Origin: Bacilli bacterium | GTDB lineage: Bacteria > Bacillota_I > Bacilli_A > ML615J-28 > CAG-698 | Direction of reading: 5' to 3' | NCBI GenBank assembly: GCA_028702495.1 | Contig: JAQVOS010000002.1 | Coordinates: forward strand, 39 to 64,038 | Length of the DNA stretch: 64,000 nt | Part shown: piece by piece, positions 3,585-59,871 of the stretch | Layout: each line of letters begins with the position of its first letter | How positions within the stretch are numbered: position 1 is the stretch's first letter | Notes under the pieces: generated by a model | What the model was told of the DNA's origin: nothing | The model's input: the letters and a program-made list of their open reading frames with translations, nothing else | Databases searched by the model: none | Made by a program: the position numbers and the translations under genes

Positions 3585-4979
3585 CTAAATCACTTTCCCG
3601 GGATTTAAAATCGCATTGGGATCGAATACTTTTTTAATACCTCGCATAATTTCGATTTGCGTATCTCCAAGAATGCGACGCATGTACTCTTTCTTGGCAT
3701 AACCAATGCCATGTTCTCCAGAAACGAGTCCACCCATTTCTTTGGCTTTGTCGTACATCTCATCGAACACACGAGTAAGTAAGCTTTTCCATTCCGTATC
3801 AGCAATGTTGTCTTTACAAATGTAAATATGAAGATTTCCATCACCCGCATGTCCAAAGGATGGAATGCGAACATTATACTTATGACTGCAATCATGAGTA
3901 AAGGCAATGTAATCCGCAATTTTATCACGAGGAACAACAACATCACATTCATCCATTAAAGTGGTTGAGGCTTTAATGGCTTCAAGGAAGGCTCCACGAG
4001 CTTTCCAAACATCGTCTTTTCGTTCTTGGGTATCAACAATTAAGACATCCAGTGCTCCAAGTTCATTTAACGCGAGCTCAGCCGCACGATGAGATTGCTT
4101 TTGAATATCCTCATCGCTTGATCCATCAAAGGTTAATAAGATATAAGCATCATATCGTCTTTCAGGAAATTTCTTCCCCAAAAAATCTTCGGCAAAGCCG
4201 ATGGTATTTCGATCAAAGAATTCAATCGCTGTTGGAGCAAGTGTTGATTGTAATATTTTAGGAACGCTAAAGATGGCATCTCTTGCTGTTTCAAAAGGAA
4301 CGAGTAAACTGATGGCTTTTTCTGGCAATGGAATCAGTTTAAGGAAGAGTTTTGTAATAATGGCTAAAGTTCCTTCAGAGCCAATCACAAGATCTTTCAA
4401 GGCATATCCGGTGGAATTTTTCGCAACAATCCGTCCAAATTGGGTGATTTCACCACTTGGAAGAACGACTTCCATGGCTTTTACCCAATCACGTGTTACA
4501 CCATATTTGACGGCTCGCATTCCTCCAGCATTGGTTGCAACATTTCCACCGATGGTAGCTGTTTTTTCACCTGGATCAGGAGCATAAAAATACCCCTTCT
4601 TTTCTACAAATTCATAGATATTCATGAGTAGGACACCTGGTTCTACTTCAAGAACAAGATTTTTCTCATCAATACCAATGATGCGATTCATCTTAGTCAT
4701 ATCGAGTAATATTCCATGTTCAATGGGAACACAAGCCCCCACAAGTCCCGTTCCACTTCCGCGAACGGTTACGGGGATTAAGTGTTGATTGGCGTATGCC
4801 ATAATTCGGGAAATTTCTATAGCTGATTCAACCTTGATGAGAACATCCGGAGTACTTCGGACGGTTCCTAGTTCATCTTTGGCGTAGTCCTCACTGATAA
4901 AATCGTGAGTAATAACATCCATTTCTCCAACAATGGATTGAAGATATCGAATATCTTCTGGTCCAATTTTATGATACAT
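3585..4979 (-). CDS. FAD-linked oxidase (GlcD / D-lactate dehydrogenase family), the LctD-like dehydrogenase subunit of an Etf-dependent lactate dehydrogenase. The true start is the ATG at 4977-4979
   Basis: FAD-binding domain GSGTGLVGACVP and FAD-oxidase C-terminal features. RBS GGGGGTGA lies upstream of the internal ATG (M29 of the track ORF). ATGA overlap with the etfA stop. Gene order etfB-etfA-glcD. Confidence 0.8.
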   Translation of the reverse strand: MYHKIGPEDIRYLQSIVGEMDVITHDFISEDYAKDELGTVRSTPDVLIKVESAIEISRIMAYANQHLIPVTVRGSGTGLVGACVPIEHGILLDMTKMNRIIGIDEKNLVLEVEPGVLLMNIYEFVEKKGYFYAPDPGEKTATIGGNVATNAGGMRAVKYGVTRDWVKAMEVVLPSGEITQFGRIVAKNSTGYALKDLVIGSEGTLAIITKLFLKLIPLPEKAISLLVPFETARDAIFSVPKILQSTLAPTAIEFFDRNTIGFAEDFLGKKFPERRYDAYILLTFDGSSDEDIQKQSHRAAELALNELGALDVLIVDTQERKDDVWKARGAFLEAIKASTTLMDECDVVVPRDKIADYIAFTHDCSHKYNVRIPSFGHAGDGNLHIYICKDNIADTEWKSLLTRVFDEMYDKAKEMGGLVSGEHGIGYAKKEYMRRILGDTQIEIMRGIKKVFDPNAILNPGKVI

Positions 4980-6169
4980 CAATTCACCCCCTTGATTTCT
5001 TTGATTTCTTTTATCAGTTGAGGGAGAATTTTGAAAGCATCCCCAACGAGTCCATAATGACAAATATCGAAAATCGATGCACTTTTATCTTGGTTAATCG
5101 AGAAGATGGTTTGAGCCCCTCTCATTCCTGCAGTGAATTGCACGGCTCCACTAATACCCAAAGTAATTAGTAATTTGGGAGCAACGGTTCTTCCACTGAG
5201 TCCAATCTGTTTTTTTGCATCCATGAGCCCACATTCAATTAGTGGTCGTGTACAAGCAAGTTGACCTCCTAAGAGGGTGGCTAATTCTTCGGCTAAGGCC
5301 AAATCTTCTTTGGTTTTAAAAGCTCTTCCAACCGCAACAAGAACTTCCGCCTCACTAATATCCACTACTTTTTCTTTTAGCTTTACTTCGAGTAAAGTAG
5401 CACTCGCTTTAAGTGAAAAGCCAATGGGCATACGAATGATTTTCCCAGTTGGATTTTGTTTTTGTGGCATTGGAAATATTTTATAACGAACGGTTGCCAT
5501 TTGCGGTCTCGTGTTGGGACATACAATGGAAGCCATGATATTGCCCCCAAAAGCAGGCCGATTTTGGATGAGATCAGTGTTTTCTTTCATTCCTAGAATG
5601 GTGCAGTCTGCTGTCAAGCCAGTATGAAAGCGAGCAGCGACTCTTGGCGCAAAACTTCTTCCAGTGGAAGTCCCTCCATATAGGACGACTGAGGGTTTAA
5701 TGCGCTTGATGAAATCTTCCATACAATTGGTATACTTTTCAACATTGAAATGATAGAGTTCTGAATGTTCATAAATATAGAGTTCATCAACGCCATAAGA
5801 TAAGATTTCTTGTTCAAAAGCACTTGCATCTTGACACATAAGGATTGCCATGACGGAGTGATGTGTCACTTTTGCGAGTTCTTTCGCTTTTCCAATCAGT
5901 TCGAAACTGACAGGATGGATTTCATGGCCATCATGTTCCATGAAAACAGCAATACCTCTCCAAACATTTTTATCAATACCAGGAACATTCTCTTCTTCAA
6001 AAGTGATAGCTCCTTGAGGTCCACGTTTCACGCATAATTTACACATCCGGCAAGCCGAATTGATGTATAAATCATCATTATATTCAATTGCTCCAAAAGG
6101 ACAGACTTTGAGTAGTTGTGCAATCACTTCTGGATTTAATTTTTCTTTATGAATCACTAGTTTTCCCAT
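4979..6169 (-). CDS. etfA: Electron transfer flavoprotein alpha subunit with an N-terminal ferredoxin-like [4Fe-4S] domain (LctC/FixB-like)
   Basis: Cys cluster CPFG...CRMCKLC in the first 50 aa, then an Etf alpha FAD-binding domain (SGAVQFTAGM...). Confidence 0.85.
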   Translation of the reverse strand: MGKLVIHKEKLNPEVIAQLLKVCPFGAIEYNDDLYINSACRMCKLCVKRGPQGAITFEEENVPGIDKNVWRGIAVFMEHDGHEIHPVSFELIGKAKELAKVTHHSVMAILMCQDASAFEQEILSYGVDELYIYEHSELYHFNVEKYTNCMEDFIKRIKPSVVLYGGTSTGRSFAPRVAARFHTGLTADCTILGMKENTDLIQNRPAFGGNIMASIVCPNTRPQMATVRYKIFPMPQKQNPTGKIIRMPIGFSLKASATLLEVKLKEKVVDISEAEVLVAVGRAFKTKEDLALAEELATLLGGQLACTRPLIECGLMDAKKQIGLSGRTVAPKLLITLGISGAVQFTAGMRGAQTIFSINQDKSASIFDICHYGLVGDAFKILPQLIKEIKEIKGVN

Positions 6170-6177
6170 GGTGCCAC

Positions 6178-6966
6178 CTATAACAACTTCAAGTCACGGA
6201 GTTTACTTGCCATGATTTGTGCCAAATCTTCTTGTTCCCACATCACTTTTTCAGTGTTTTTTGTTGGAGGAAACATCCGTTCAACTTGGGTTGGAGAACC
6301 CATTAATCCATAATGAGTTGCATCCGAATCAATCATATCTTGAATCGTGAGTTGGCGAATAGGTTGGTTTGCGAACTCAAGACTTCTCTTATATGAGGGA
6401 AGTCGTGGAGTGAAAATTCCTTTATCGACGGTAATGAGACAAGGAAATTGAATTTCCCAAATCTCAACGGTTTTATCCATACTGATGGATACGACCATGG
6501 ATTTTTCTTTGACTTCAATAATTTTATCGACATAAGCGATGTGGGGAATGCGTAAACATTCCGCAATTTCTGGCCCGACTTGAGCCGTATCTCCATCGGT
6601 GGTTTGTTTCCCACAAATGATTAGATCAAATTCTCCCATGGCTTTAATACCTTGTGAAAGGGTATAAGAGGTTGCAACAACATCTGCTCCTGCAAATTTA
6701 CGATCCGTTAATAATGCTGCTTCATCGCATCCCATCCAAATGGATTCCTTAAGGACGGTGGTAGCAGAAGGGGGGCCCATGGTAATCGTTGAGACCTTGG
6801 CTCCAGTTTGTTCTTTAATGCGAAGGGCTGTTTCAATGGCATAGAGATCGTAGGGGTTCATTTTTGTGTTGTTACCATCACGAATGAGAACCCCTGTGAT
6901 AGGATCGACCTTCACATCAGAACTTGCAGGGACTTGTTTTATGCAAGTTAGAATATTCATAGACAC
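6178..6966 (-). CDS. etfB: Electron transfer flavoprotein beta subunit (LctB/FixA-like)
   Basis: Typical EtfB N-terminus ILTCIKQVP...VKVDP and overall length. Immediately upstream of etfA. Confidence 0.85.
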
Positions 6967-7045: not shown

Positions 7046-7074
7046 ATTATATCACATTTTTTGCACTTTATCAA
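7046..7074 (-). promoter_or_regulatory. Sigma-A promoter for the etfB-etfA-glcD operon (-35 TTGATA, 17-nt spacer, extended -10 TGaTATAAT)
   Basis: Minus-strand reading TTGATAaagtgcaaaaaatgtgaTATAAT. A ~70-nt purine-rich leader follows before the etfB ATG. Confidence 0.6.
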
Positions 7075-7808
7075 AACAGTTGTTTTAAAAATGCCATTGA
7101 TTGTTCGAGCAATTGCGTTTTCGAAGGTTCTTCATCATATCCATGACCCGATTCATTTACGATATGAAGCCTGGAATTGGGGAATTTGACTGTATAGGTT
7201 ACCCCTGTCAAATAAGGGACAGCTTTATCTTGACGTCCATGAATCACTAAAACGGGTTTTTCGAATGATTCACATTCACGGAAGGGATCAATATCAGCCA
7301 TGGAATCGATTAATTCTCCTGATAACTCAAACCCTGCTGAATATACATGACCATTTTCCATTTTTGGAGCAGCATCAAAACGCTCTTTCATTTTTTGATA
7401 CATCGTTCCTGCTGGGGACCATAATAGAAGGCGATCAATCGCAATTTCGTTGCACACAAGAGCAGCGATGGCACCTCCCATTGAAAATCCCATCAGAGAG
7501 ATGGTTTCAATCCCAGGAAAGTTTTTAGCCGTTTGAAGCATGAGTTTTGCATCTTCGATGGCTTCAAGATATGAGAATTCATAGAATTCACCATCAGATT
7601 CTCCATTACAACTGTAATCCATCCGTAGCGAAGCAATGCCTTGCTCATTCAAAAGACGTGACATGGTACGAAAATAGCCATTGTGTTCGGTTTTATTACC
7701 GGTATAGCCATGTAACATCACCACACAACGATTTGCTCCTTCGGGATGATCTAGATAGCCTCGTAACACGCGATTTTGCTTGTTTATGATTTCGATGTGT
7801 TGAATCAT
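7071..7808 (-). CDS. Alpha/beta-hydrolase-fold esterase or peptidase (S9/BD-FAE-like)
   Basis: Nucleophile-elbow motif GFSMGG, HGYTGN and the catalytic His near the C-terminus (ESGHGY). Its start overlaps the murQ stop by 4 nt. Confidence 0.7.
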   Translation of the reverse strand: MIQHIEIINKQNRVLRGYLDHPEGANRCVVMLHGYTGNKTEHNGYFRTMSRLLNEQGIASLRMDYSCNGESDGEFYEFSYLEAIEDAKLMLQTAKNFPGIETISLMGFSMGGAIAALVCNEIAIDRLLLWSPAGTMYQKMKERFDAAPKMENGHVYSAGFELSGELIDSMADIDPFRECESFEKPVLVIHGRQDKAVPYLTGVTYTVKFPNSRLHIVNESGHGYDEEPSKTQLLEQSMAFLKQLF

Positions 7809-8713
7809 TTTCCTGCCTCCTTGAGCGCTTTATGAATATTTCCGCCTGCAGCATTCAGGAATTGATCAATGGTTATTTCATCTTGAATCCCACTAAGTTG
7901 ACTAAAAAGAGCTTTTTTAACGGTGTGATATTTTTGTAGCAAAAGCGTTGCTTCTTCATTAGATATTTGAAGGGCTTCTTCAAGGATGGATTGCGCTCTT
8001 TTTACGAGTTTCTCATTGGTTGCTTGAACATCAATCATGAGGTTTTCATAGACCTTTCCCATTTTAATCATGGAAGCCGTTGATAGCATATTACAAATCA
8101 TCTTTTGCGCTGTTCCTGATTTCATTCGCGTTGATCCAGTTAAAGGTTCAGCACCCGTAATGGCTTCAATCGGATAAGAAACGAGTGATGCGAGCTCACT
8201 GTTTACTGATGTAACAATACAAGAAGTTAAGCACCCTAGCTTTTTCGCATATTCAATGCCACCAATGACATAAGGTGTTCTTCCTGAGGCGGCAATCCCG
8301 ATGACGATGTCGAGATTGGATAAATTAATGGCCTTAAGATCTTCAACTGCCATTACTTTATTGTCTTCAGCCCCTTCAACCGCTTTGACCATGGCTTTCA
8401 TGCCACCAGCCATAATGCATTGTACCATATCGGGGGAAACGGAGAAGGTGGGTTGACATTCGACTGCATCAATGAGCCCAATACGACCACTGGTCCCGGC
8501 TCCGAGATAAATCATACGCCCACCTGCTTCAAATGTTTTTACAATCGCATCGACTGTTTTTGCGATTTGAGGTAAAACTGCTTCGACGGCATAAGCGACG
8601 ATTTTATCTTCTTCATTCATAGCACGAACCATTTCTTCTGTGGACATTTGGTCAATGTGAATGGTTCTTAAATTTCTTTTTTCAGTTCCTATTTTTTTTA
8701 AATCGATGTTCAT
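7805..8713 (-). CDS. murQ: N-acetylmuramic acid 6-phosphate etherase
   Basis: SIS-domain protein with a MurQ-type N-terminus (TEKRNLRTIHIDQMSTEEMV), GAGTSGR and the conserved C-terminal region. Sits next to anmK. Confidence 0.85.
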   Translation of the reverse strand: MNIDLKKIGTEKRNLRTIHIDQMSTEEMVRAMNEEDKIVAYAVEAVLPQIAKTVDAIVKTFEAGGRMIYLGAGTSGRIGLIDAVECQPTFSVSPDMVQCIMAGGMKAMVKAVEGAEDNKVMAVEDLKAINLSNLDIVIGIAASGRTPYVIGGIEYAKKLGCLTSCIVTSVNSELASLVSYPIEAITGAEPLTGSTRMKSGTAQKMICNMLSTASMIKMGKVYENLMIDVQATNEKLVKRAQSILEEALQISNEEATLLLQKYHTVKKALFSQLSGIQDEITIDQFLNAAGGNIHKALKEAGK

Positions 8714-9831
8714 TCTTTTTGCTTTGGACTCGGTGTAATTTGACCTAAGACCACGGGCATTTTTGCACCTGTGGCGGAAGGAACATTACTTGGTTTTCCA
8801 CTTAAGGTCATGTATCCAAGGATGGCGAAAGCAACGGCTTCCTTGGCATCACTATTGAGTCCAAACTCCTCTCCTGTTATGATAGTGAACTGTGTTATTT
8901 CTCGAAGACGTTTTAAAATATAGTGATTATGACTTCCACCCCCACAAATAACCGCACAATCAATCTGCTTGATAAAATGTAGGTATTGATAGGCAATCGA
9001 GTAAGCTGTTAATTCGGTGATGGTTGCAATAATATCTTGAGGACGGTAATTCGCGAATTGATAAGTTTCACTGAGTGTTTCCATAAATTCTTGACTATAT
9101 TGCTCGCGTCCCGTTGATTTGGGAGGTATCCGAGTAATAAAAGCATCTTGTTTTAAATGGTTAAAAATAGTCTCTATCACATGTCCTGACAGGGCAATTT
9201 TACCATCTTCATCATAGGGTTTATTATAATATTTGTGAGTGAAGTAATCAATCATGATGTTTCCAACGCCACAATCGAATGATTTAACTTCCTCCATCGT
9301 TGCTCCAACGGGAATATATGTCAAGTTACTGATTCCCCCAATGTTTTGTAAAACAAGGTTTATGGGGGTATTACGATATAAATAGTATTCAGAGAAAGGG
9401 ACCAAAGGTGCTCCTTCTCCGCCAGCGGCGATATCCATCACTCGAAAATTCGACACAACTTGAATGTTGGTATGATAAGCAATGATGCTCGCTTCGCCAA
9501 TTTGTAGTGTTGAAGGAATTTGTCCTTTTGGATCATGCCATATGGTTTGTCCATGAGATGCAACAAAGGCGATGTCTTGATAGGTATAGGGGGTTCCTTG
9601 AAGCAGGTTGTCAATGGCTTTTACAAACCAATGTCCTAATTCAAAATTAAGCGTTGAGATTTCTGAAAGTTTGGCCGTTTTCACATTTAAATTGCGAAAA
9701 AGACGATTTTTAAAATCTTGATCGTAGGGAAGTGTATGAAATTTGATTAATTTTACTTCCTCTTGAATATCGACCAGAGCTGCATCGACACCATCAAGAG
9801 AGGTTCCACTCATTAATCCGATGGCTAACAT
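8710..9831 (-). CDS. anmK: Anhydro-N-acetylmuramic acid kinase
   Basis: N-terminus MLAIGLMSGTSLDGVDAALVDI is diagnostic of AnmK. 4-nt overlap with murQ. Confidence 0.85.
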   Translation of the reverse strand: MLAIGLMSGTSLDGVDAALVDIQEEVKLIKFHTLPYDQDFKNRLFRNLNVKTAKLSEISTLNFELGHWFVKAIDNLLQGTPYTYQDIAFVASHGQTIWHDPKGQIPSTLQIGEASIIAYHTNIQVVSNFRVMDIAAGGEGAPLVPFSEYYLYRNTPINLVLQNIGGISNLTYIPVGATMEEVKSFDCGVGNIMIDYFTHKYYNKPYDEDGKIALSGHVIETIFNHLKQDAFITRIPPKSTGREQYSQEFMETLSETYQFANYRPQDIIATITELTAYSIAYQYLHFIKQIDCAVICGGGSHNHYILKRLREITQFTIITGEEFGLNSDAKEAVAFAILGYMTLSGKPSNVPSATGAKMPVVLGQITPSPKQKE

Positions 9832-10739
9832 AATAGATTCATCCTTTTCACTTTATAATAAGCACCAAATATGGGATCAAAATCCCCTTCTACAAATTTT
9901 AAACTGATATTGTCTTCTTTTAAGGTTAGAAGCAATTCTTCTTGAGTGATGCGTGAATTCATGATAAACCCACCTCTAAAACCAATGACGGCCTCTTCAT
10001 CAAGTTTTAGATTTTGAACTGCTTTTTTTACATCCACGGCCAAATCACGCCCTGCTTTTTTTAAAAGTTGAATGGCTTCTTGATTATTCTTTAATGCTGC
10101 TTTGCTAACAACATCTGCGAAGGCAGCAATTTCGCGTTTGGTTCGATGATAGACAAAGGAGCGAAGGTCATAAATGCTACTTGCTCCAATTACTTGAAAA
10201 AACTGTAGTGTTAAAGGGGATAATGTTTGATTGGTCTCATATTGATGAATGCTTTGGCACATAAGATCGCGTACGGTTGTAAAAGCAGATCCCACTTCCG
10301 TAAGCATATGGCCAAATCCACCAATGAGTTGCGTTTCATTGTTATGAAGCCCCAAAACGGCTGATCCAGTACCTGATAATACGAGGATGCCTTGATTATA
10401 TAAGTCAGTAACAATCGAGTATAATGCGATACTAGCATCATTATCGATGTAAGTAGGAATATGATAAGTTGCTTCGTAATCTAAGCGAATCTCTTCAAGA
10501 TTGGTGATAACCCCTAATCCAGATAGACCCATGGATATACAAACAATCTCGTATTGTAAATGGGCAAACTGATAAGCTTTATCAACACCCAATCGAATAT
10601 TTTCAAGGGCTTGATCGCCGACAACGGCAGGAGAACCTGAGCCTTCAATGGTTGTAAAAAGAATGTTTTTGAGTGCATCAATGATGCATACTTTGGTCTT
10701 GCTGCCACCCGCATCAACGGCAATGATTACTTTTTCCAT
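9825..10739 (-). CDS. BadF/BadG/BcrA/BcrD-type ATPase, a putative N-acetylmuramic acid / N-acetylglucosamine kinase (MurK-like)
   Basis: N-terminus IIAVDAGGSKTKVCIID is the ASKHA sugar-kinase phosphate-1 motif. 7-nt overlap with anmK. Confidence 0.7.
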   Translation of the reverse strand: MEKVIIAVDAGGSKTKVCIIDALKNILFTTIEGSGSPAVVGDQALENIRLGVDKAYQFAHLQYEIVCISMGLSGLGVITNLEEIRLDYEATYHIPTYIDNDASIALYSIVTDLYNQGILVLSGTGSAVLGLHNNETQLIGGFGHMLTEVGSAFTTVRDLMCQSIHQYETNQTLSPLTLQFFQVIGASSIYDLRSFVYHRTKREIAAFADVVSKAALKNNQEAIQLLKKAGRDLAVDVKKAVQNLKLDEEAVIGFRGGFIMNSRITQEELLLTLKEDNISLKFVEGDFDPIFGAYYKVKRMNLLC

Positions 10740-13345
10740 GGTACAACGCCTCGAATCTGAAAACGGAATTTTTGACCTGGACGAATTTCATTCAGTAAGT
10801 AGTCGCTGATATGAGCGATTCCCACCACATTGACACGTTCATCAAAGGGGAGCTCTTGACGCATAATGGTGAGTTCTCCTTGATAACGGAGGAATCCTTC
10901 ATTATCAATGGTCACCATCTTCTTCTTGCGGTCAAAGGTATTTCGCTTAGGAATGGTATTGAGTTCACGCATGGAAGAACGAACACCATAAGGGTTCTCA
11001 TCTGTTCTATTGGTGTGAACTTTATTCAGTATGGTTCGTCCAATGTCACTGATTCCTTCAAATACATCAATAGGAATGGTAATTAGATCGCGATTGTACG
11101 TTAAAGCTTCTTCGAGTTCTTCAGCACTACAATAGGCATCACCAAAGCATACTTCGTCTACTTCTAGCATAGCCAAATCAGCCAAGGAAGCAAGGAGGTC
11201 CATTTGACGATGTTCTTCAATTGTTGGAAGTCCTTCATAGATGGGAGGACGTTTTCCATGACTAGATGGAACATAAGCCATAATATGCAGACCTAATGAT
11301 TTATATAAGAGGTTTCGATTTAATACGTCTTCTTGACTAAGTCCCGTGTAGGGTTTAGGATAAAAATTATGGCTAATTCTTAACTTTGAAAAATCAATTC
11401 CTCGAGAAATCAAGAATTCAATTTCTTCACGATGAGCAATGGAGGCATTGATTTCAATAAAGAAATCATTTTTTGATAATTCAAGAATATCGTCACATGT
11501 AAAGCCCCAATCTAATCGTAGAGAATAAATTCCTTTAGGAATTCCAATTCGGTCTAAAACTTTCTTTGAAACATCTAAAATAACTTTTAACCCCAACTCG
11601 TTGGCGTAATTGATGGTTGCCACTAAGTCTTCTAAAAAATCGGGTAAAGCTTCAGGCATATGAGCTGAAATAAAGATGGTATCAACATTTTTCGACTTCA
11701 AGAAAACCATGTATTCAAAGTTTTTAGCTTGAGGATAGTCTTCTAATCCGACGTAAACAGATGCAAAAACATTGAAGGGACGAACAAGCGTGATGGGAAC
11801 TTTCCCCCGAGGGGTGATATTACCAGCTAAGTATTCCACAACCGCTTGAACAGAATTGGGAGTATATTCGTATAAAGCCAAATAGTTCTCTACATTGTCC
11901 AAAACAAGATAATCGTACGGATTTCTCATTGAAATAACGAAAGTCTTTTTCGCTTTATTGATGATGGTATTAATCATCTTCGTTTGGTTTTTATAATTGG
12001 CAGCATTGTAACTACAAATAATGACTGTGTCATAATTTGCTACTTCATTAATCAAACGAGCATCAAATTGATTGAGTTCCATTTTTAAGCATGTAATGTC
12101 AGGAATGCGTTTACGCACTGCTTCAATGACATTTCTAGTATCCATCTTATCTTCCGCAATTGTTGTTGCAAATGGGGCAGTGGCAATGAGAAGGGTTCGA
12201 TCTTTTAGAAAGAAACGTTCTCCCTTAATGCATGTAAGAGATGCAAGGGTGATTTCTTGAGCCTTCTTTTGATTTGATAAATTGGGGAAATACTTAGTAT
12301 TGGCAGGATTATGAAGAAAATTTATATTGATAAGATTCATGCTAGTTTCTTTTGCTTTTAGAATCCGCGCAACTTTTACATCAATTTCTGCTTCAGTAAT
12401 TTTTCCTTCATGAACTGCTTCTTCCATAAGCGTTAGGAAAGCAAGTTGCTTCTCAAGTGTGTGTGAAATACAAACCAAATCAAGACCAGAAATGATTCCT
12501 TGAACTGCTCCCTTTGCAGCACCATAGGTATCATCGATGGCTTTCATTTCCATGCAATCACTGATAATGAGACCATTGAAACCCAATTCTTCGCGAAGAA
12601 GCCCTGTTAGTATTCGTTTGGATAAGGTGGCAGGACGTCCTTCAGTTTCATAAGCCGTGAAATAGATGTGGGCACTCATGATGGCACCTACACCCTCAGC
12701 AATGGCTTTTTTAAAAGGAACAAGTTCCGTGCTATGAATGTCTTCAATACTTTTTGTAATAACAGGAAGTCCTAAATGACTATCGACAACGACATCGCCA
12801 TGACCGGGAAAATGTTTGGCAGTCGCAAGAAGTCCATCTTTTTGCATTCCTTTGATGAAAGCAGTTCCCATGGCTGCGACCATGTGGGGATTATCCCCAT
12901 AACTGCGAACACCAATAACGGGATTTTTTGGATTGTTGTTTACATCAAGAACAGGAGCCAAATTAAGATTGATTCCAAGATGTGACAATTCATCACTCAT
13001 GATGGAACCAATTACTTCCGCATTGCCTTTTTCTGTGGCGGAAAGCGTCATCGCTCCAGGGCAAAATGTAGCCCCATTCATAATGCGTGTCACAATTCCG
13101 CCCTCTTGATCGATGGAAATGAGCGGCATTATTCCCGTGTGTTCCATCACTTTTTGATGAATTGTACGATTAAGGGTTGATAGTTGGTCAATAGAATGAA
13201 TATTACGAGCAAATAAAATCACATTCCCTACTTGATGCTCTTCAATTAAGGAGCGCATGTGTTGATTGTATTCATATCCATCAAAACCTGCGACGAGCAA
13301 TTGTCCGATTTTTTCTGTGAGCGTCATATCATTTATTTTTTTCAT
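10727..13345 (-). CDS. Two-domain fusion (872 aa). An N-terminal GH3 beta-N-acetylglucosaminidase (NagZ-like, ~520 aa) is joined to a C-terminal ~350-aa TIM-barrel-like domain that resembles the DUF871/MupG 6-phospho-N-acetylmuramidase family
   Basis: GH3 motifs ISIDQEGG, KHFPGHGD..VDSH and LIISDCMEMKA. The C-terminal half (ILDVS..LRLDWGF..ISHNFYPKPYTGLS..HIMAYVPS) lacks any GH3 C-terminal domain signature. Its DUF871 assignment is from memory and is tentative. Confidence 0.65.
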   Translation of the reverse strand: MKKINDMTLTEKIGQLLVAGFDGYEYNQHMRSLIEEHQVGNVILFARNIHSIDQLSTLNRTIHQKVMEHTGIMPLISIDQEGGIVTRIMNGATFCPGAMTLSATEKGNAEVIGSIMSDELSHLGINLNLAPVLDVNNNPKNPVIGVRSYGDNPHMVAAMGTAFIKGMQKDGLLATAKHFPGHGDVVVDSHLGLPVITKSIEDIHSTELVPFKKAIAEGVGAIMSAHIYFTAYETEGRPATLSKRILTGLLREELGFNGLIISDCMEMKAIDDTYGAAKGAVQGIISGLDLVCISHTLEKQLAFLTLMEEAVHEGKITEAEIDVKVARILKAKETSMNLININFLHNPANTKYFPNLSNQKKAQEITLASLTCIKGERFFLKDRTLLIATAPFATTIAEDKMDTRNVIEAVRKRIPDITCLKMELNQFDARLINEVANYDTVIICSYNAANYKNQTKMINTIINKAKKTFVISMRNPYDYLVLDNVENYLALYEYTPNSVQAVVEYLAGNITPRGKVPITLVRPFNVFASVYVGLEDYPQAKNFEYMVFLKSKNVDTIFISAHMPEALPDFLEDLVATINYANELGLKVILDVSKKVLDRIGIPKGIYSLRLDWGFTCDDILELSKNDFFIEINASIAHREEIEFLISRGIDFSKLRISHNFYPKPYTGLSQEDVLNRNLLYKSLGLHIMAYVPSSHGKRPPIYEGLPTIEEHRQMDLLASLADLAMLEVDEVCFGDAYCSAEELEEALTYNRDLITIPIDVFEGISDIGRTILNKVHTNRTDENPYGVRSSMRELNTIPKRNTFDRKKKMVTIDNEGFLRYQGELTIMRQELPFDERVNVVGIAHISDYLLNEIRPGQKFRFQIRGVVPWKK

Positions 13346-13354
13346 TCCAAACTC

Positions 13355-14491
13355 CTAATATAATAAATATTGTTTTCGTTCTTCTGCAAACTTCTTTGAA
13401 TCACGGGCGATGATATTCCATTGTTCTTCTAAGGAATAGGTTTCTTTCAAAATATAATCACACCCAGTGTTGAGTTCAAGCATTCGATTTCCACCTGCTT
13501 TATAGGGAGGTAAAACCTCAAAAGCATTAGGGTATAGTCGACGAATGATAGCAAGCATGGACCATCCCGTTTTCACCGCTTCAAATGTGTTTTTATCGGT
13601 AATGTGAACATGAACCCCTTTGCATAAGAATCCATTATGCTTCGAAAAAGTAGGGGTAAATGTGATGGGCGTAAAAAGCACTCCAGGAAGATGTAGTTCA
13701 TTCAATGCGGTTGTGAGTTCTCTTGGATTCATATAAGGTGCTCCGATGTATTCAAAAGGTTTTGTGGTTCCTCTTCCTTCAGAAACATTAGTCCCTTCAA
13801 AAATACAGGTGCCATTATATAAATAACAAGTTTCAAGCGTAGGAACATTGGGAGATGGACACAGCCATGGTAAACGAGTATCATGGAAGTCCATTGAGCG
13901 TTTCCAACCTTCCATAGGGATGATGGTCAAATGACAGCCAATCCCAAAATGCTCATTAAACATTTTTGCCAACTCACCAATGGTCATCCCATGACGTTGA
14001 ACAATTGGATAATATCCGATAAATGACCGGTATTCTAGATCAAGGATGTTCCCTTCACAAACTTCTCCGCCAACGGGATTAGGACGATCAAAAACAACAA
14101 ACTCTTTCTTTGCCTCACTACAAGCCATCATCGAATATGCCATGGTATAAATGAAGGTGTAAAAACGAGAACCGACATCTTGAATATCAATGCAAATTAT
14201 GTCAATCGTATCAAGCATTTCCTTGGTGGGACGTTTATCTTTGGTGTATAAACTATGAGCAATGATACCAGAATCTTGATCGATATAGGAATCAAAATGG
14301 ATTCCAGCTTGAAATTCACCGCGAACACCATGTTCTGGCGAAAATAAGCACACTAAGTTTACTTTTTCCTTCAATACATCAATGGTTGTCGTCATCTGGC
14401 TATTGGTTCCTGTTGGGTTGGTGATGAGTCCAACTCGCTTGTTGGCAAAGAGCGTAAGATAGCGATCAATATTGTCAATTCCGAGTTTCAT
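13355..14491 (-). CDS. namZ: DUF1343 family protein (YbbC/NamZ-like exo-beta-N-acetylmuramidase, GH171-like). The start is at the ATG at 14489-14491
   Basis: DUF1343-type sequence with its N-terminal VGLITNPTG..VLK...V...LF.PEHG signature region. AAAGGA RBS lies 8 nt before the second ATG. Sits next to the NagZ fusion and murQ. Confidence 0.7.
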   Translation of the reverse strand: MKLGIDNIDRYLTLFANKRVGLITNPTGTNSQMTTTIDVLKEKVNLVCLFSPEHGVRGEFQAGIHFDSYIDQDSGIIAHSLYTKDKRPTKEMLDTIDIICIDIQDVGSRFYTFIYTMAYSMMACSEAKKEFVVFDRPNPVGGEVCEGNILDLEYRSFIGYYPIVQRHGMTIGELAKMFNEHFGIGCHLTIIPMEGWKRSMDFHDTRLPWLCPSPNVPTLETCYLYNGTCIFEGTNVSEGRGTTKPFEYIGAPYMNPRELTTALNELHLPGVLFTPITFTPTFSKHNGFLCKGVHVHITDKNTFEAVKTGWSMLAIIRRLYPNAFEVLPPYKAGGNRMLELNTGCDYILKETYSLEEQWNIIARDSKKFAEERKQYLLY

Positions 14492-15158
14492 TTGAACCAT
14501 CCTTTCTTTCCATAAGATCTTGATTTTCTTGATGGATTAACATCCAATATGTTTTTTTAAATAGGAGATGTCCTGCTAAAATGGGGATGCTAAGACAAGT
14601 GACGGCCCACAAGGGAACAAAGACGATATACAATAATACTTCAAGAGCGATGATGAGTACACACCCTAAACTTGAGGCGATATGTTTAGTGGCAACATAA
14701 AAAGCAAAACGGAAATTATCAAAATAGCGAAAATTGAAATGAGTATAGATCATCGGCAATTGAATCGTAATGAGCAGGAGCAATACCATCGCAAAAGCCA
14801 CAAAATAAAAGCCGATAACCGATATTGTTGTTAGTATTCCTACACCTTCTGAAGTTTCAGAATAAAAAATAAGAGCAACGACAAATACGATTGCGGCACC
14901 AATGATAAAGATGTTCCCTTCTAATGGACGAATAAAGTTATTTTTTAGGTTTCTAAAATAAGCGGAAAAAACATTTTTTTCTTCTCCGGCAGTATAATCA
15001 TAGATTGTTTTATAACACGCTGTAATACTAGGAAGGAAAGTGATAATCCCTAATGAAGTGATGAGTGTTAAAATATTGAGTACTGTAATTCGCCATACCC
15101 AATCGAAGAAACGATATATTTTACTGTTTACAAACTTTTCAATGTTCATATCCAACAT
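14475..15158 (-). CDS. DUF624 (YesL-like) integral membrane protein
   Basis: Multi-pass hydrophobic protein with the conserved N-terminal region RFFDWVWRITVLNILTLITSLGIITFLP that is typical of DUF624. Confidence 0.65.
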   Translation of the reverse strand: MLDMNIEKFVNSKIYRFFDWVWRITVLNILTLITSLGIITFLPSITACYKTIYDYTAGEEKNVFSAYFRNLKNNFIRPLEGNIFIIGAAIVFVVALIFYSETSEGVGILTTISVIGFYFVAFAMVLLLLITIQLPMIYTHFNFRYFDNFRFAFYVATKHIASSLGCVLIIALEVLLYIVFVPLWAVTCLSIPILAGHLLFKKTYWMLIHQENQDLMERKDGSNETRN

Positions 15159-15220
15159 TCCCCTGTTATATGTTAATTATAGCATATTTCTAGTTAAATA
15201 ACAAGGTAAAATCATCCTGA

Positions 15221-15250
15221 GCACCTATGAAAAAAGACCAACTTTTCAGT
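15221..15250 (-). terminator. Rho-independent terminator after the Big_2-SBP lipoprotein gene
   Basis: Minus-strand RNA GGCCAACU-GAAA-AGUUGGUC followed by UUUUUU. Confidence 0.6.
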
Positions 15251-15270
15251 TGGCCTTTTAGATTCAATTA

Positions 15271-16966
15271 TTATGAGAATGCTTTTGTTAAAGATTCTTG
15301 TAGTTGGTCAATTAATGGACCAACTGCTTCAGCAAATGTAGCAGCACCTGTTGCATTTACATATTTTTGGATGGCTGTTGAAAAATCAGAGTAGCCAGTA
15401 TTCACAATCGCATTTCCTGGTTCAGCTAATGGTTCATAGAAACCAATCGTTTTTGCGTTTCCAGCGATGTATTTGAATGCAGCGACACTTGGTTCATCTT
15501 CAGTATATTTACGTGCATAGTCATCAAGCGCTTGAGCAGCATCATAAGTTGGAGAATTCAAGCGATATTCAGTTGTTAATTGGAATGTTTTAACCAAAGC
15601 ACGATAAATATTTTCAGCTGTACATTGAGTTCCAAATCCAGTATAGTCTCTACCAATTGGCATAACCCATGTAGCAGTTCCTGTTAATCCAAGTTTTTGT
15701 TGATCTTTAGTAGTCCCATCAGGTCTTGGGAATGGTACATATCCAAACTTAGTATCATCAGCATTTCCAGGGCTCCATAAGTCTTCTTTCCAACGGTTAG
15801 AAGTATTAACGAACCATAAGTCACCTGAAGCGATAAGTGAACGAGCTTCATTCCATGTAGTATCTCCACCATCAAGGGCACGAGTGCCAAACATAGCTCC
15901 TGCATCAAAAATTTGTCTTAAAGTATCAGCAGCAGCAATAGCAGTGTCAGTTAATGGTTGGAAAGTCATTGTTGAAAGGTCAGCAATTTTTACACCACCG
16001 GCATTGGTCATACCTACCCAATAGTAAGCAGCACAACCAGAAAGGGCATAGAAATCTTTATCAACGGCTTCTGGAAGTCCATCAAGGGCAGCTTGTGCAG
16101 CGATACAGAAGTTTTTAAACTCTGTATAAGTCCAGTTGCCTTCATTGAATATTTGGGCAGGAGACTTTGGTAATCCTAATTTTTCAAATAAAGCGATATT
16201 ATAATAGATAACATTATAAATCCCAGATTCTCCATTTGTAATAGAGTATAAGTTTCCTTTATAAGATCCAGATTGCGCATAGACTTCGTCCATGTATCCT
16301 TGTCCATATAAAGCATACCAATCGCTGACATCAATAATAGCGTTACCTTCAACGAATTTTCCGATTTGAGCATCAGGAACAGTATAGAAGTCATAATCAG
16401 CTGTATTACTTGCAGCTTGATTTAGGATATAATTCCATCTAGGAGTTCCCCATTCAGCATCATCTGGATAAGCAACAACTTCGATTTGACAATTGTAATT
16501 GTCTTCAACCCAAGTCCATGCTTGTTGTTTTGCTTGGCGATCTGCTCCAGCATATAAATCATTGAAAGGGTCTGTTTCATTCAATGCATGGCCTGCTTGA
16601 GCAATTTTAATGGTATATCCACCAAGGTCGATATTGTCTTCATCACTAGCAGTAACAGATATACGAATTTGACCAACTATTGCTGTATTAACAGTTGAAG
16701 TTGCACGAATAACTGTATTTCCAGCAGAAACACCAGTAACGTTTCCCTCTTGATCTACGGCAGCAATATTGTCTTTTGCAGAAGTCCAAGTTACTGTCTG
16801 TGGAGCATTTTGGGGCACAACGCTAGCTGTTAATTTAATGGTTCCTTCAACTGCAACTGTTTGTAATCCTGTAATATTAACAGATGTTGGAGCGATTTCT
16901 TTGGTTCCGCAACCAACTAAAACAATTGCGAAAGTCAACATTAGCATAAATGCTAACAATTTTTTC
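15271..16966 (-). CDS. Lipoprotein with an N-terminal Big_2 domain fused to a family-1 extracellular solute-binding-protein-like domain. There is no adjacent permease gene
   Basis: Lipobox LVGC, Big_2 stretch (TVTWTSAKDNIAAVDQEGNVTGVSAGNTVIRATS), then SBP-like features (YKGNLYSITNGESGIYNVIYYNIALFEKLGLPKSP...WTYTEFKNF). RBS AGGAGG before the ATG at 16964-16966. Confidence 0.6.
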
Positions 16967-17061
16967 ATTTTTTCTTTCCTCCTCGATAATTTTTTGTTAG
17001 TTTGTTTATATACTTTAGGACTTTCTCCTAATAGCCAAATAAAAAATATAACTGAAAATGT

Positions 17062-17108: not shown

Positions 17109-18026
17109 CTATGCTTTTTTTGACATATATTTATAGGTCTTCCAAACTTCAAAACCAAATTGTTGATAAAATGTGACGAGTCCAGTCCAATCAATCATTA
17201 CCTCTATCATGCCACGCTTTTTCATTTCACGAAGGGCATATATGACAATATCACTGCCTAAACCTCGTCCTTGATAAGATTTGTGAACCCCTAATGGGCC
17301 AATTCCCCCCAGATTTATGAAGCGAGCATGCCAAGTAATATTGTATCCACCATAAGGAAAACTACGATCATTAGTGCGTGCAAAAGCAATCACTTTTCCT
17401 TCATGTTTTGCAATCACATACTCGTGTCCAGTTCCACCCGCTTCGAAATAACGAATGCCTTCATGGGCCCAACGATCACTAAAGGTTTTAAGTAGTTCAA
17501 TGATTCCCTTTTCGTCCTCTTTTGTTGCAACCGAAAATGACATATTCATATTCTTGATGGGATATTCCATGATATTTGCACAAAACATATCATGAGTGGA
17601 TCTTGAGCCAAAATAGCCTCGCTTTGTGAGCCATACATCGGTTAAATTATCAAAATCAGTAGGGACTCCTGGGAAGAAGTTAAATAAATCTGAGCCGATC
17701 AATATTTCATTTTTTCCTTCCAATGATGCTTCCCCGCCACTTAGAAGCGTTGAGCCAATCCCTTGATGTCGATATTTTTTTGCTACATAAAAGAGAGAAA
17801 TCCATCCTCGATCTAGATAGGCGGGAAGAAGGGAATCGTTCGATGTTTTTGTAATGATGAATCCAACGAGGGTATCATCATCATAAGCGCCTAATACCCA
17901 TTTGTTGGGATAGCTAGTAACATTTCTTAAAAATACATCGTCTGCAATCGGATAAATAAATCCGACTTCACGATTCCACAATGTTTGAATGGCTTGAAGA
18001 TCTAGGATATCGTGATATTGAATCAT
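17109..18026 (-). CDS. Tandem-GNAT N-acetyltransferase (two acetyltransferase domains, 305 aa)
   Basis: GNAT motif A (RHQGIGSTLL in domain 1, QGRGLGSDIV in domain 2). Paralogous to the 37971..38942 gene. Confidence 0.65.
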   Translation of the reverse strand: MIQYHDILDLQAIQTLWNREVGFIYPIADDVFLRNVTSYPNKWVLGAYDDDTLVGFIITKTSNDSLLPAYLDRGWISLFYVAKKYRHQGIGSTLLSGGEASLEGKNEILIGSDLFNFFPGVPTDFDNLTDVWLTKRGYFGSRSTHDMFCANIMEYPIKNMNMSFSVATKEDEKGIIELLKTFSDRWAHEGIRYFEAGGTGHEYVIAKHEGKVIAFARTNDRSFPYGGYNITWHARFINLGGIGPLGVHKSYQGRGLGSDIVIYALREMKKRGMIEVMIDWTGLVTFYQQFGFEVWKTYKYMSKKA

Positions 18027-18745
18027 AAAAGAGCAGCTGCCTCTTCATCGACAACCACAGTAACATGAGAATGTTGTTGAAGAATAGACGCTGGGAAGGT
18101 CTCAGTCACAGGACCGTGTACTAATTCATATACTGCTTGTTGTTTTCCTTTTCCACTTGCAATCAGAAGAATTTCTTTTGCTTGCATAATATTATGAATC
18201 CCCATAGTGATGGCATGGGTTGGCACTTCATCAAGTGAATTGAAGAAACGTTTGTTATCCTCCCGTGTTTTATCCGTCAGTCTTACGACAAAAGTTTCTG
18301 TTTTAAATGAGGTACCCGGTTCATTAAACCCAATATGCCCGTTACCACCGATTCCAAGTAATTGTAAATCAATGGTCGCTTGATGTAATAATTCATTATA
18401 AGCATCGCATTGTGCTTGAAGATTATTTCCTTCTGCAGAAGGAACATGAACGTTTTCTTCCTTGATATCCACGTGATGGAATAAATGACGATGCATGAAA
18501 TTGTGATAACTTTCTGGATGTGACCGAGGAAGTCCACAATATTCATCGAGATTATATGTTTTTACTTCCGCAAACGATATTTCTTGTCTTTGATAGCTCT
18601 GAATTAAATTTTGGTAGAGTCCAATTGGGCTACTGCCAGTCGCCAACCCCAATGTGGCATTGGGTTTTTTTTGTAATAAGTCAATCATTAGTTGACTTGC
18701 AACACGACTAAGTTCTTGATAATCTTTTACGCGAATAATTTTCAT
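18023..18745 (-). CDS. nagB: Glucosamine-6-phosphate deaminase
   Basis: Conserved LGLATGSSP, YNLDEY and GIGGNGHIGFNEPG motifs. Confidence 0.9.
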   Translation of the reverse strand: MKIIRVKDYQELSRVASQLMIDLLQKKPNATLGLATGSSPIGLYQNLIQSYQRQEISFAEVKTYNLDEYCGLPRSHPESYHNFMHRHLFHHVDIKEENVHVPSAEGNNLQAQCDAYNELLHQATIDLQLLGIGGNGHIGFNEPGTSFKTETFVVRLTDKTREDNKRFFNSLDEVPTHAITMGIHNIMQAKEILLIASGKGKQQAVYELVHGPVTETFPASILQQHSHVTVVVDEEAAALL

Positions 18746-18748
18746 TTC

Positions 18749-20260
18749 TTACACCTCTAATCGTACCGGTAAACTTCCAGTAAATGTATTATCTTTACAT
18801 TTTTGACAAACAGCTCCTATGCTTTCTTTGGTACAGTCATACGTACATATTAAAGCGCCACTTTTCTTTAAAATCACTCCATCATAAGGCGAGCGCAAAC
18901 ATACAAGAATGACTTTGCTTTTGTCGAGTTGTTCATATAGTTTTGTAAAATAATCTCCTGTTTTGACCTGGTAAGTTGCCAATAGTATTTTATCATATTT
19001 TGTGCACATTTGCACGATGTTTTCTAAATTACCCATTTCCTCATCGATGATCGTTTCAGGATAAGGCAAATGCTTTTTGAATGTTTCATACCCTTCTTCT
19101 TCATTATCTACCAAACTAGCTAAATGAATTTTAGGAAAGAGCATGAGGACAGAATCGTTTTTTTGTAAAGGAAGTAAGCCACAATCATATACCTTTGTGA
19201 TGCTTTTCTCGATAAGTTCATCCGTGTATGGTGCTAAACGATTCAAGGCAAGTTTTCGTGGAACTTTTGTATATTTTTGTTTCAAAGCAATAATCTTTTC
19301 AACTGATTCGTCAAGACGTGATAAAGGAATTTCACCCCTCATTACCAATTGACGAAATGTTTTTATGATGGTTATTTGCTCTTCTAAATCAGCCTTTCCA
19401 CAAAAAACTAAAATATCATTTCCTGCCATAATGCCGTTTTTTACAATCTCTTCAATGGAATAACGTCCCCAAATGGCTGCCATGGTTAGGGAATCCGTGG
19501 TAATGAGGCCTCTAAAACCTAGTTCTTGTTTTAGAAGCTCAGTAATCATCGGATAAGATAAAGAACTGGGGAAAGCAGGATCAATGGCATCATACAAGAT
19601 GTGAGAAATCATGACGCCTTCACACCCCTCGCGGATGGCTTCAATATACGGAACAAGTTCTTCTTGGAAGAGAGTAGCTTTGTCCTTTTTTACAATCGGT
19701 AATCCCAAATGACTATCGACATTGGTATCCCCATGCCCAGGAAAATGTTTAACCATCGGTAAGATCATTGCATCTTGAAAGGCTTTGCTTGCTCTTACCA
19801 CTTGTTCTGCTACTTTTTGGGGATTATCCCCATAACTACGAGAATTAATGACTGGATTTAAAGGATTGGAATTGATGTCAGCTACAGGTGCATAATTAAT
19901 GTGAAATCCTAGTTGCTTTAAATCTTCACCACAAGCTCTCGTAACTGGATAAATATCCTCTCCGGTTGCAGATAAACTCATTGCTCCTGGTAAATAGGTT
20001 ACATCCTCCATCAAACGACGAACCATCCCTCCCTCTTGATCTAAGCTAATAAAGATCGGGTGTTTCGCATGTAGTTGAATATCATCATTTAATTGCTTTA
20101 CTTGTTCATAAGATGTTATGTTATGAGCAAACTCCACCACATTCCCAACGTGATAGTTTTCTATCAGTGTTTTTAATTGATGATTATAGGTCGTTCCACG
20201 AAAAGCAAAACATAACATTTGGCCAATTTTTTCTTCGATGGATAATTGATTTATATTCAT
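18749..20260 (-). CDS. GH3 beta-N-acetylglucosaminidase (second NagZ-like paralog, 503 aa)
   Basis: SLDQEGGMV and KHFPGHGDTNVDSH motifs. No signal peptide. Confidence 0.8.
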   Translation of the reverse strand: MNINQLSIEEKIGQMLCFAFRGTTYNHQLKTLIENYHVGNVVEFAHNITSYEQVKQLNDDIQLHAKHPIFISLDQEGGMVRRLMEDVTYLPGAMSLSATGEDIYPVTRACGEDLKQLGFHINYAPVADINSNPLNPVINSRSYGDNPQKVAEQVVRASKAFQDAMILPMVKHFPGHGDTNVDSHLGLPIVKKDKATLFQEELVPYIEAIREGCEGVMISHILYDAIDPAFPSSLSYPMITELLKQELGFRGLITTDSLTMAAIWGRYSIEEIVKNGIMAGNDILVFCGKADLEEQITIIKTFRQLVMRGEIPLSRLDESVEKIIALKQKYTKVPRKLALNRLAPYTDELIEKSITKVYDCGLLPLQKNDSVLMLFPKIHLASLVDNEEEGYETFKKHLPYPETIIDEEMGNLENIVQMCTKYDKILLATYQVKTGDYFTKLYEQLDKSKVILVCLRSPYDGVILKKSGALICTYDCTKESIGAVCQKCKDNTFTGSLPVRLEV

Positions 20261-20261
20261 A

Positions 20262-20296
20262 TTTCACCTCATAAAAGAAAGATGCCACAGAATTTG
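20262..20296 (-). terminator. Rho-independent terminator after the permease pair
   Basis: Perfect hairpin aagatgccaca-gaattt-tgtggcatctt, followed on the minus strand by UCUUUUAU. Confidence 0.7.
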
Positions 20297-20311
20297 TGGC
20301 ATCTTTGCTCA

Positions 20312-22409: not shown

Positions 22410-22413
22410 ATCA

Positions 22414-29142: not shown

Positions 29143-29144
29143 TA

Positions 29145-30131: not shown

Positions 30132-30142
30132 CTTAATCCTCC

Positions 30143-34943: not shown

Positions 34944-34980
34944 AGGAACTCCCATCAATAAATGAAATTCAGTATAGACA

Positions 34981-53566: not shown

Positions 53567-53589
53567 TATTAACATTGGAGGAATTATAT

Positions 53590-59792: not shown

Positions 59793-59811
59793 ATTTTTCT
59801 CCAATATGACT

Positions 59812-59840
59812 ATTATACTGAATATAAAGGGGGATGTCAA
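59812..59840 (-). promoter_or_regulatory. Consensus sigma-A promoter for the CHAP lipoprotein gene (-35 TTGACA, 17-nt spacer, -10 TATAAT)
   Basis: Minus-strand reading TTGACAtccccctttatattcagTATAAT, ~15 nt before the RBS. Confidence 0.75.
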
Positions 59841-59871
59841 TTTCAATTATTTATTCATATTTTGACTACTT

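Follow-up and report, generated by a model that had tools for sequence, protein, structure and literature searches.

Staphylococcus aureus MupG, a 6-phospho-N-acetylmuramidase, is the one biochemically characterised member of glycoside hydrolase family 170 (GH170), and recycling models cast it as an alternative to NamZ (GH171) that depends on the phosphotransferase system (PTS). It is a standalone protein of about 350 aa that is encoded in an operon with murQ, fed by the PTS transporter MurP and regulated by MurR (Kluj et al. 2018, PMC6262408), and all GH170 members that have been characterised or studied genetically act on 6-phospho-disaccharides (PMC6262408; PMC12791066). The murQ-murR-murP-amiE-nagZ-namZ operon of Bacillus subtilis also supports stepwise exo-degradation of peptidoglycan sugars, with secreted NagZ and NamZ acting extracellularly and monosaccharides entering by PTS; NamZ and MupG were reported not to co-occur in genomes (Mueller et al. 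2021, PMC8054146). Another route, found in Clostridium acetobutylicum and Tannerella forsythia, relies on a BadF/BadG-type ATP kinase, MurK, which is encoded beside murQ and replaces the PTS as the source of N-acetylmuramic acid 6-phosphate (MurNAc-6P) (PMC10465942; PDB 8zo3). Here we analyse a stretch of 64,000 nt (the window) from contig JAQVOS010000002.1 of a Bacilli bacterium (assembly GCA_028702495.1), in which a single gene on the minus strand (10727..13345) joins a GH3 NagZ to a GH170 MupG-type module within a predicted operon for peptidoglycan-sugar catabolism.

The fusion gene is one unbroken, ATG-initiated reading frame of 872 codons, as a first-pass annotation of the window had read it, and residues are numbered here from Met1 at 13343-13345. 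Its predicted product is a cytoplasmic bifunctional exo-glycosidase, composed of a complete two-domain GH3 NagZ followed by a complete GH170 MupG-type muramidase. This architecture is backed by Pfam, NCBIfam, PDB sequence matches and fold matches, and the AlphaFold2 (AF2) model of the whole protein (predicted local distance difference test score, pLDDT, 88.8; predicted template modelling score, pTM, 0.84) is confident across the NagZ/MupG junction. Examination of the translation revealed no signal peptide, and the protein is therefore assigned to the cytoplasm. We consider it highly likely that this architecture, together with the pathway described below, is correct.

The NagZ half begins with a GH3 N-terminal (beta/alpha)8 catalytic domain at residues 8-330 (12356..13324), which matches PF00933 at 7e-91 (305 bits against a cutoff of 27) and also exceeds the cutoff of the NF003740 beta-N-acetylhexosaminidase equivalog (225 bits versus 207). 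Both the full catalytic domain and its KHFPGHG..DSH-type motif had been recognised from the letters alone. The motif, KHFPGHGDVVVDSH, occupies residues 177-190 (12776..12817), contains the Asp188/His190 dyad and aligns to KHFPGHGDTDVDSH in B. subtilis NagZ (3bmx). Asp263 (12557..12559), in the context IISDCMEM, aligns with the D318 position (IVTDALNM) of the same enzyme and is the predicted catalytic nucleophile; it and the K177-H190 motif, including D188 and H190, are invariant among 30 fusion homologues. The NagZ half shares its two-domain fold, its Asp nucleophile and the Asp-His dyad of the KHFPGHG...DSH motif with B. subtilis NagZ (YbbD; 3bmx, 4gyj) and the GH3 beta-N-acetylglucosaminidase of Paenibacillus sp. 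FPU-7 (6k5j).

The claim that the usual GH3 C-terminal domain is missing from this protein did not survive comparison with complete enzymes. By BLASTP, residues 4-520 align end to end, at 33% identity, with a standalone 503-aa NagZ paralogue encoded in the same window (18749..20260). The Paenibacillus enzyme, a two-domain protein of 535 aa, matches residues 7-520 in phmmer (4.6e-106) and gives a Foldseek TM score of 0.89 when normalised to the target. The GH3 C-terminal alpha/beta domain is divergent but complete at residues ~345-523 (11777..12313), where the AF2 strand/helix pattern agrees with that domain and PF01915 (GH3_C) gives a sub-threshold match at 405-523 (25 bits versus a cutoff of 31). 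The paralogue alignment, phmmer and Foldseek together rule out a truncated NagZ. The half is predicted to be two-domain and whole, as in Gram-positive two-domain NagZ, and to hydrolyse the beta-1,4 bond between N-acetylglucosamine (GlcNAc) and MurNAc.

The C-terminal ~350 residues, which had been likened to MupG and DUF871, are a genuine member of that family. A MupG_N TIM-barrel domain at residues 529-746 (11108..11761) matches PF19200 at 5.6e-53 (180 bits against a Pfam gathering score of 24), and a MupG_C beta domain at residues 755-863 (10757..11083), seen also in the conservation analysis, matches PF05913 at 2.3e-23 (83 bits against 24.4). The module matches the fold of the solved DUF871 proteins 1x7f and 2p0o. 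GH170 proved to be a small family, as an exhaustive HMMER search for it returned 865 representatives at 50% identity with E<=1e-3, and we aligned 179 domains, comprising 30 fused modules, 10 NamZ-linked standalone modules, 6 PTS-linked modules and 133 representatives. Average-linkage clustering of these placed all fused and NamZ-linked modules, with 14 of the representatives, in one group that we call clade B; within this set of 179, the window's module groups by identity apart from the PTS-linked MupGs. To count as invariant, a column had to be at least 90% conserved in both clade B and clade A and at least 85% conserved in the remaining GH170 domains. All 32 of these family-wide residues are kept in the window's module (S529, F558, S560, E565, D591, R610, D612, G614, N633, S635, N660, Y662, P663, T667, G668, R699, P701, G705, L706, P707, E710, R713, G735, D736, R780, D782, R789, N815, R820, Y821, G823 and N839), among them six arginines (R610, R699, R713, R780, R789 and R820); MupG_C carries the invariant H777, R780, D782, R789, N815, R820, Y821 and G823. 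Most of the conserved residues map at or just past the C-terminal ends of the barrel strands in the AF2 model. Because the full conserved set is present, the GH170 module is very probably catalytically competent. Kluj et al. call the catalytic residues of the family 'enigmatic' (PMC6262408).

The fusion recurs widely. A search of 5.8 billion proteins found GH3, MupG_N and MupG_C together in all 120 best clusters (865-885 aa, 46-81% identity), and 18 more clusters of ~1177 aa (P0017 and similar) contain the kinase as a third fused module without a linker. In GTDB species-representative genomes, which we scanned with a junction-spanning alignment before reading the open reading frames (ORFs), there were 26 complete double fusions, three fused genes cut by contig ends and one triple fusion. 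All hosts are metagenome-assembled genomes (MAGs) whose labels read Bacilli, Bacillota, Acholeplasmataceae, Tenericutes, Mollicutes, Izemoplasmatales or 'Coprobacillus', with a few bins given as Bacteroidales, and the fused gene always lies in one and the same type of operon. NagZ and MupG are encoded by separate adjacent genes in three GTDB genomes (L036, L039 and L040), with a 4-nt overlap in L036. As the two remain separate neighbours in these genomes, the fusion is best read as a 'Rosetta-stone' event, a recurrent merger of neighbouring operon genes that are translationally coupled, predicted to arise through loss of the intervening stop codon. The triple fusions of 1177 aa (P0017; L001, L002, L003 and L037) run NagZ, MupG and BadF/BadG kinase, with the junction ...KFKLVIDQV|IAEEAIIGIDAGGTKTK; they come from MAGs to which one source gives a name beginning with 'Acholeplas'.

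The neighbours proposed for the fusion gene in the first-pass annotation were confirmed by Pfam and NCBIfam, and the genes are tightly packed in what appears to be a single operon. Directly upstream lies a NamZ homologue (13355..14500, minus strand, as are all genes of this operon; PF07075 3e-84 and PF20732 9e-48). Downstream follow a MurK-like BadF/BadG-type sugar kinase (9825..10739; PF01869 7e-21), whose best solved relative is a MurNAc/GlcNAc 6-kinase, the anhydro-N-acetylmuramic acid (anhMurNAc) kinase AnmK (8710..9831; PF03702 9e-104; NF007148, 435 bits versus a cutoff of 387) and MurQ, a MurNAc-6-phosphate etherase (7805..8713; TIGR00274, 358 bits versus 302). Four gene overlaps had been listed for this cluster, and three of them stand as given: 4 nt between murQ and anmK, 7 nt between anmK and the kinase gene, and 13 nt between the start of the kinase gene and the end of the fusion gene. 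The last, of 17 nt (26 nt if the longest ORF is taken), exists, but it joins namZ to the DUF624 gene upstream of it; between namZ and the fusion gene there are instead 9 nt, and this spacer has an AGGAG Shine-Dalgarno sequence that overlaps the namZ stop codon. The window's NamZ also lacks a signal peptide in its translation, so both it and the fusion protein should work in the cytoplasm.

We did not find a PTS domain by Pfam in any ORF of at least 170 aa in the window, nor any EIIBC or EIIA homologue by tblastn in the window or in loci L001-L045 (queries from L050 and L046), which agrees with the earlier remark that there is no PTS in the locus. Neither here nor in the fused loci, then, is MupG coupled to a PTS of the MurP type, as it is in S. 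aureus. The nearest MupGs outside this operon type (L046, L050, L052, L054, L055 and L060), from Clostridia such as Brassicibacter and Anaerovirgula, are encoded directly downstream of a PTS EIIBC gene in six of six cases, and in L050 the order MurQ, EIIBC, MupG, MurR, EIIA is the S. aureus arrangement (PMC6262408). Nor does the reported mutual exclusion of NamZ and MupG apply: NamZ lies immediately upstream in the window and in 35 of the 35 evaluable fused loci, and it stands beside the standalone clade-B MupG in a further 10 of 10. On contig L086, beyond these 35, there is no NamZ upstream. Clade B is a clear exception to the published rule, and since NamZ is strictly retained beside MupG, the two muramidases do not appear to be redundant.

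A tblastn synteny table over 85 loci, in which the pathway synteny is kept in about 40, shows three layouts. The first is that of the window (NamZ, the NagZ-MupG fusion, in some loci the kinase, AnmK, MurQ, hydrolase, electron transfer flavoprotein (ETF) and oxidase), and the second, in about 10 loci, is the same except that a standalone MupG directly follows NamZ. The third consists of NamZ, NagZ, kinase and MurQ, and lacks MupG, AnmK, the hydrolase and ETF; Haploplasma modicum is an example. In L051, L057, L061, L064-L069 and others we observed a simpler operon of DUF5696, two permeases, NamZ, NagZ, kinase, MurQ and NagB. These genomes, which include H. modicum ATCC 29102 (L057), are cultured and uncultured members of the Acholeplasma/Izemoplasma type, and so peptidoglycan-sugar catabolism seems to be widespread in lineages usually regarded as wall-less.

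We propose that imported oligosaccharides would be trimmed from the non-reducing end by alternating cuts, in which the NagZ half would take off a terminal GlcNAc and the GH170 half a terminal MurNAc bearing a 6-phosphate. The MurK-like kinase, which uses ATP and is encoded next door or, in some relatives, within the fusion, would supply that phosphate in place of the MurP PTS, while NamZ would deal with unphosphorylated MurNAc ends or free disaccharides. MurNAc-6P would then pass to MurQ, anhMurNAc to AnmK and GlcNAc to the kinase, with AnmK, MurQ, NagB and the ETF/oxidase module completing the pathway. It had been suggested that the fusion processes the murein disaccharide from both ends; this does not hold, because NagZ and MupG are both exo-enzymes at the non-reducing end, and the two modules would therefore alternate along the glycan. 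We judge this to be the best explanation overall, with a probability of about 0.45. Its kinase-fed 6-phospho step is put forward tentatively, at rather less than even odds; a precedent may be BglK, an ATP-dependent beta-glucoside kinase that phosphorylates O6 of beta-glycosides including methylumbelliferyl-GlcNAc (MU-GlcNAc) (PMC10570127). AnmK was also considered as the source of the MupG substrate and rejected, as it phosphorylates a reducing-end anhydro sugar that offers MupG no glycosidic bond. The correlation between MupG and AnmK extends to the whole module (alpha/beta hydrolase, ETF and oxidase) and so probably reflects lineage.

Several observations weigh against a kinase-fed phospho-muramidase. 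The kinase is missing from the operon in seven distinct fused loci (L004/L005, L018, L024, L026, L027, L035) and in two of the loci with unfused adjacent genes (L039 and L040), and it is present in related operons without MupG (L051, L057, L064 and others), so kinase and MupG are not strictly coupled. Known MurK enzymes have been shown to act only on free MurNAc and GlcNAc (PMC10465942), and the operon kinase may, by analogy, likewise act only on monosaccharides. The GH170 module itself has diverged: members of clade B share on average 44% identity with one another, 36% with the PTS-linked clade and 31% with the remaining domains. Clade B has a signature of its own, consisting of Y537, E631 in strand 5, R656 and S658 in strand 6, and K664, which is mostly Arg elsewhere. 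Outside the clade, 116 of 125 sequences have an RSxxxR motif; in most clade-B members RSSxR replaces it, with a shifted R793, and changes such as these could mean altered specificity. We also considered a clean loss of a near-universal arginine in clade B and rejected it, since the change is really a one-residue register shift from RSxxxR to RSSxR.

These points lend themselves to a different account, in which the GH170 module of this clade would be a phosphate-independent cytoplasmic exo-muramidase for MurNAc-beta-1,4-GlcNAc, or for the 6-O-acetylated or otherwise modified MurNAc ends that NamZ leaves. NamZ would then do another job, such as the release of GlcNAc-MurNAc, and the kinase would phosphorylate released monosaccharides only. 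The first-pass annotation had raised a non-phospho specificity of this kind, and we regard it as possible, if somewhat unlikely. It would suit the PTS-less locus, the distinct clade with its signature changes and shifted arginine, and the fused operons from which the kinase is absent. GH171 enzymes are known to differ in their mode of action, TfNamZ1 being an exo-disaccharidase (bioRxiv 10.1101/2021.12.02.470905), and Kluj et al. expected other specificities in distant DUF871 members (PMC6262408); the conserved alpha/beta hydrolase beside murQ could in this case be a de-O-acetylase. However, none of the family-conserved basic residues has been lost in clade B, and one, R656, has even been gained. 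The nearest relatives outside the clade are PTS-coupled, and the GH170 members studied so far all use 6-phospho-disaccharides, which favours retention of a phospho-substrate.

A true 6-phospho-muramidase could also receive its substrate already phosphorylated. Wall teichoic acid is attached via a phosphodiester to O6 of MurNAc, and fragments of Gram-positive walls with MurNAc 6-phosphate at former teichoic-acid or secondary-polymer sites might be imported by the ABC (ATP-binding cassette) transporter; NamZ could not remove such ends, and the GH170 half could. This would explain why NamZ and MupG stand side by side in a PTS-less scavenger and why MupG is independent of the operon kinase, and it would fit with the exported wall-lytic enzymes (Amidase_2, CHAP, GH18, GH20) and stem-peptide catabolic enzymes of the window, which suit feeding on foreign walls. 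It is purely inferential, however: among the genes of the operon we identified no phosphodiesterase able to expose MurNAc-6P, and uptake of phosphorylated oligosaccharides by such an ABC transporter lacks documentation. We consider it improbable. Still less credible is that the module acts on a non-muramyl 6-phospho-amino-disaccharide such as 6-phospho-N,N'-diacetylchitobiose, as proposed for Lacticaseibacillus paracasei ChbE, a GH170 member genetically tied to chitobiose use (PMC12791066). GH18 and GH20 genes do occur in the window, but ChbE works with a PTS, of which the locus has none, and in all loci the clade keeps its fixed place, with namZ on one side and anmK/murQ on the other. The idea that an error of assembly or sequencing joined two genes into the long ORF can be practically dismissed; a few relatives do have NagZ and MupG genes apart, but the recurrence of the in-frame, full-length architecture across the best clusters and in about 30 independent species genomes refutes it, as it does an undetected frameshift, and the AF2 model is confident where the halves meet.

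On the same strand, the operon runs from DUF5696 through two ABC permeases, the second NagZ, NagB, a double-GNAT protein, a Big_2 lipoprotein and DUF624 to NamZ and the fusion gene, and then through the kinase, AnmK and MurQ to an alpha/beta hydrolase, ETF beta, ETF alpha and a GlcD-like FAD oxidase. Pfam and synteny identify the upstream part (17109..25563), with the double-GNAT, NagB, standalone NagZ, permease and DUF5696 genes, and also the DUF624 membrane protein and Big_2 lipoprotein (14475..16968). The latter (15271..16968) has an LVGC lipobox in its translation and is a putative solute-binding protein. The alpha/beta hydrolase gene (7071..7808), assigned by Pfam, overlaps murQ by 4 nt and, by synteny, follows murQ in every MupG-containing operon and is absent from the MupG-less ones; a role as a de-O-acetylase for 6-O-acetyl-MurNAc is a guess. 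The ETF beta, ETF alpha and oxidase genes (3585..6966) were recognised from their ORFs, a TIGR00387-like match and synteny, with PF01012, PF00766, PF01565 and PF02913 found in the corresponding genes of syntenic loci. The trio lies directly downstream of murQ and the hydrolase and is kept in more than 20 loci, including L004, L006 and L009; ETF alpha bears a Cys-rich N-terminal extension. It is probably a D-lactate-oxidising, ETF-coupled dehydrogenase module for the by-product of MurQ. As predicted from its genes, the operon turns peptidoglycan glycan fragments into GlcNAc-6P and D-lactate and is fed by an ABC transporter without a PTS. Rfam and tRNA scans of the 64-kb window returned nothing and promoter signals in it were not above chance, while one clear terminator was found at 20306-20278.

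Other genes of the window also point towards cell walls. A 730-aa protein (39992..42184, minus strand) consists of a full LysA diaminopimelate decarboxylase (TIGR01048, 413 bits, residues 9-428) fused to a Peptidase_M19 dipeptidase (505-718), and its neighbours encode a protein with a beta-lactamase fold (38953..39990), one with a double GNAT (37971..38942) and an LD-carboxypeptidase (37020..37967), a group that resembles a catabolic module for peptidoglycan stem peptides. There are also large Big_2 proteins with Amidase_2 (1178 aa; 53575..57111, plus strand) and CHAP (896 aa; 57156..59846, minus strand), as well as GH18, GH20, GHL10 and a 1049-aa DUF5696 protein (43323..44945, 33111..34958, 35729..37072 and 22414..25563, all on the minus strand), a set that fits an arsenal for attacking and feeding on the walls of other bacteria. 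A second ABC sugar system (28198..33118, minus strand) has a 991-aa solute-binding protein in which SBP_bac_8 covers only ~600-890, behind a long N-terminal extension, and the GH20 gene lies immediately downstream of it. Two proteins have no significant Pfam family: one of 650 aa (26235..28187, minus strand), located between DUF5696 and this second ABC system, and one of 439 aa (50517..51836, minus strand).

The locus points to rich peptidoglycan scavenging in uncultured Acholeplasmatales-like Bacilli. The GH170 modules of clade B, both those fused to NagZ and those standing alone after NamZ, might represent a functionally new, PTS-independent muramidase, either as the glycosidase half of a so far undescribed, ATP-kinase-coupled 'phosphorylate-then-cleave' system for muro-oligosaccharides or as an enzyme for O6-modified MurNAc ends, a suggestion that we offer as doubtful. 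If it holds, Acholeplasma-like and possibly wall-less Bacilli could live off the cell walls of other bacteria. In the kinase-coupled case, some lineages would join NagZ, MupG and kinase activities in one 1177-aa polypeptide; in the other, the O6 modifications would be phosphate remnants of the teichoic-acid linkage, or O-acetyl groups. The clade thus offers a concrete and easily expressed test case for whether GH170 needs a 6-phosphate and whether a phospho-glycosidase pathway can run on soluble kinases in place of the PTS. In practice the impact is modest, since none of the parts is new and the fusion already carries a generic annotation in databases; what is gained is the correction of one published generalisation, not a new principle.

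Set against the described systems, the window's module shares MupG_N and MupG_C, the DUF871 fold (1x7f, 2p0o), the family-invariant residues and an operon with murQ with S. aureus MupG, but it follows NagZ in a fusion, lacks a nearby PTS or MurR, has NamZ and AnmK as neighbours, and falls into a clade apart that bears signature residues of its own (PMC6262408). Unlike the NagZ of B. subtilis, which is a secreted lipoprotein, the fusion product lacks a signal peptide and is extended by a 350-aa GH170 module. The locus has NagZ, NamZ and MurQ in common with the B. subtilis operon, but its genes predict cytoplasmic glycosidases, ABC uptake, phosphorylation by ATP kinases and MupG alongside NamZ (PMC8054146). 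The MurK routes likewise use a BadF/BadG-type kinase beside murQ, but they include no GH170 glycosidase and no described kinase-glycosidase fusion (PMC10465942). Among fold matches, the multi-domain fungal GH3 NagZ 4zm6, from Foldseek, similarly places a second enzyme module behind a two-domain GH3 N-acetylglucosaminidase; in that case the module is a GNAT region, an acetyltransferase and not a second glycosidase. A possible functional analogue is BglK with 6-phospho-beta-glucosidase (Thompson et al. 2002, as cited in PMC10570127), where a soluble kinase phosphorylates an intracellular beta-glycoside at O6 of its non-reducing sugar and a phospho-glycosidase then cleaves it; the families differ from ours, being a ROK kinase and GH1/GH4 glycosidases. 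Our literature searches found no description of a NagZ-MupG fusion or of such a pathway in Acholeplasma-like bacteria. All of the parts come from known families (GH3 NagZ, GH170 MupG, GH171 NamZ, MurK-like kinase, AnmK and MurQ), and what sets this system apart from every described one is the NagZ-MupG(-kinase) fusion, the placement of all glycosidases in the cytoplasm, the lack of a PTS and the obligatory co-occurrence of MupG and NamZ.

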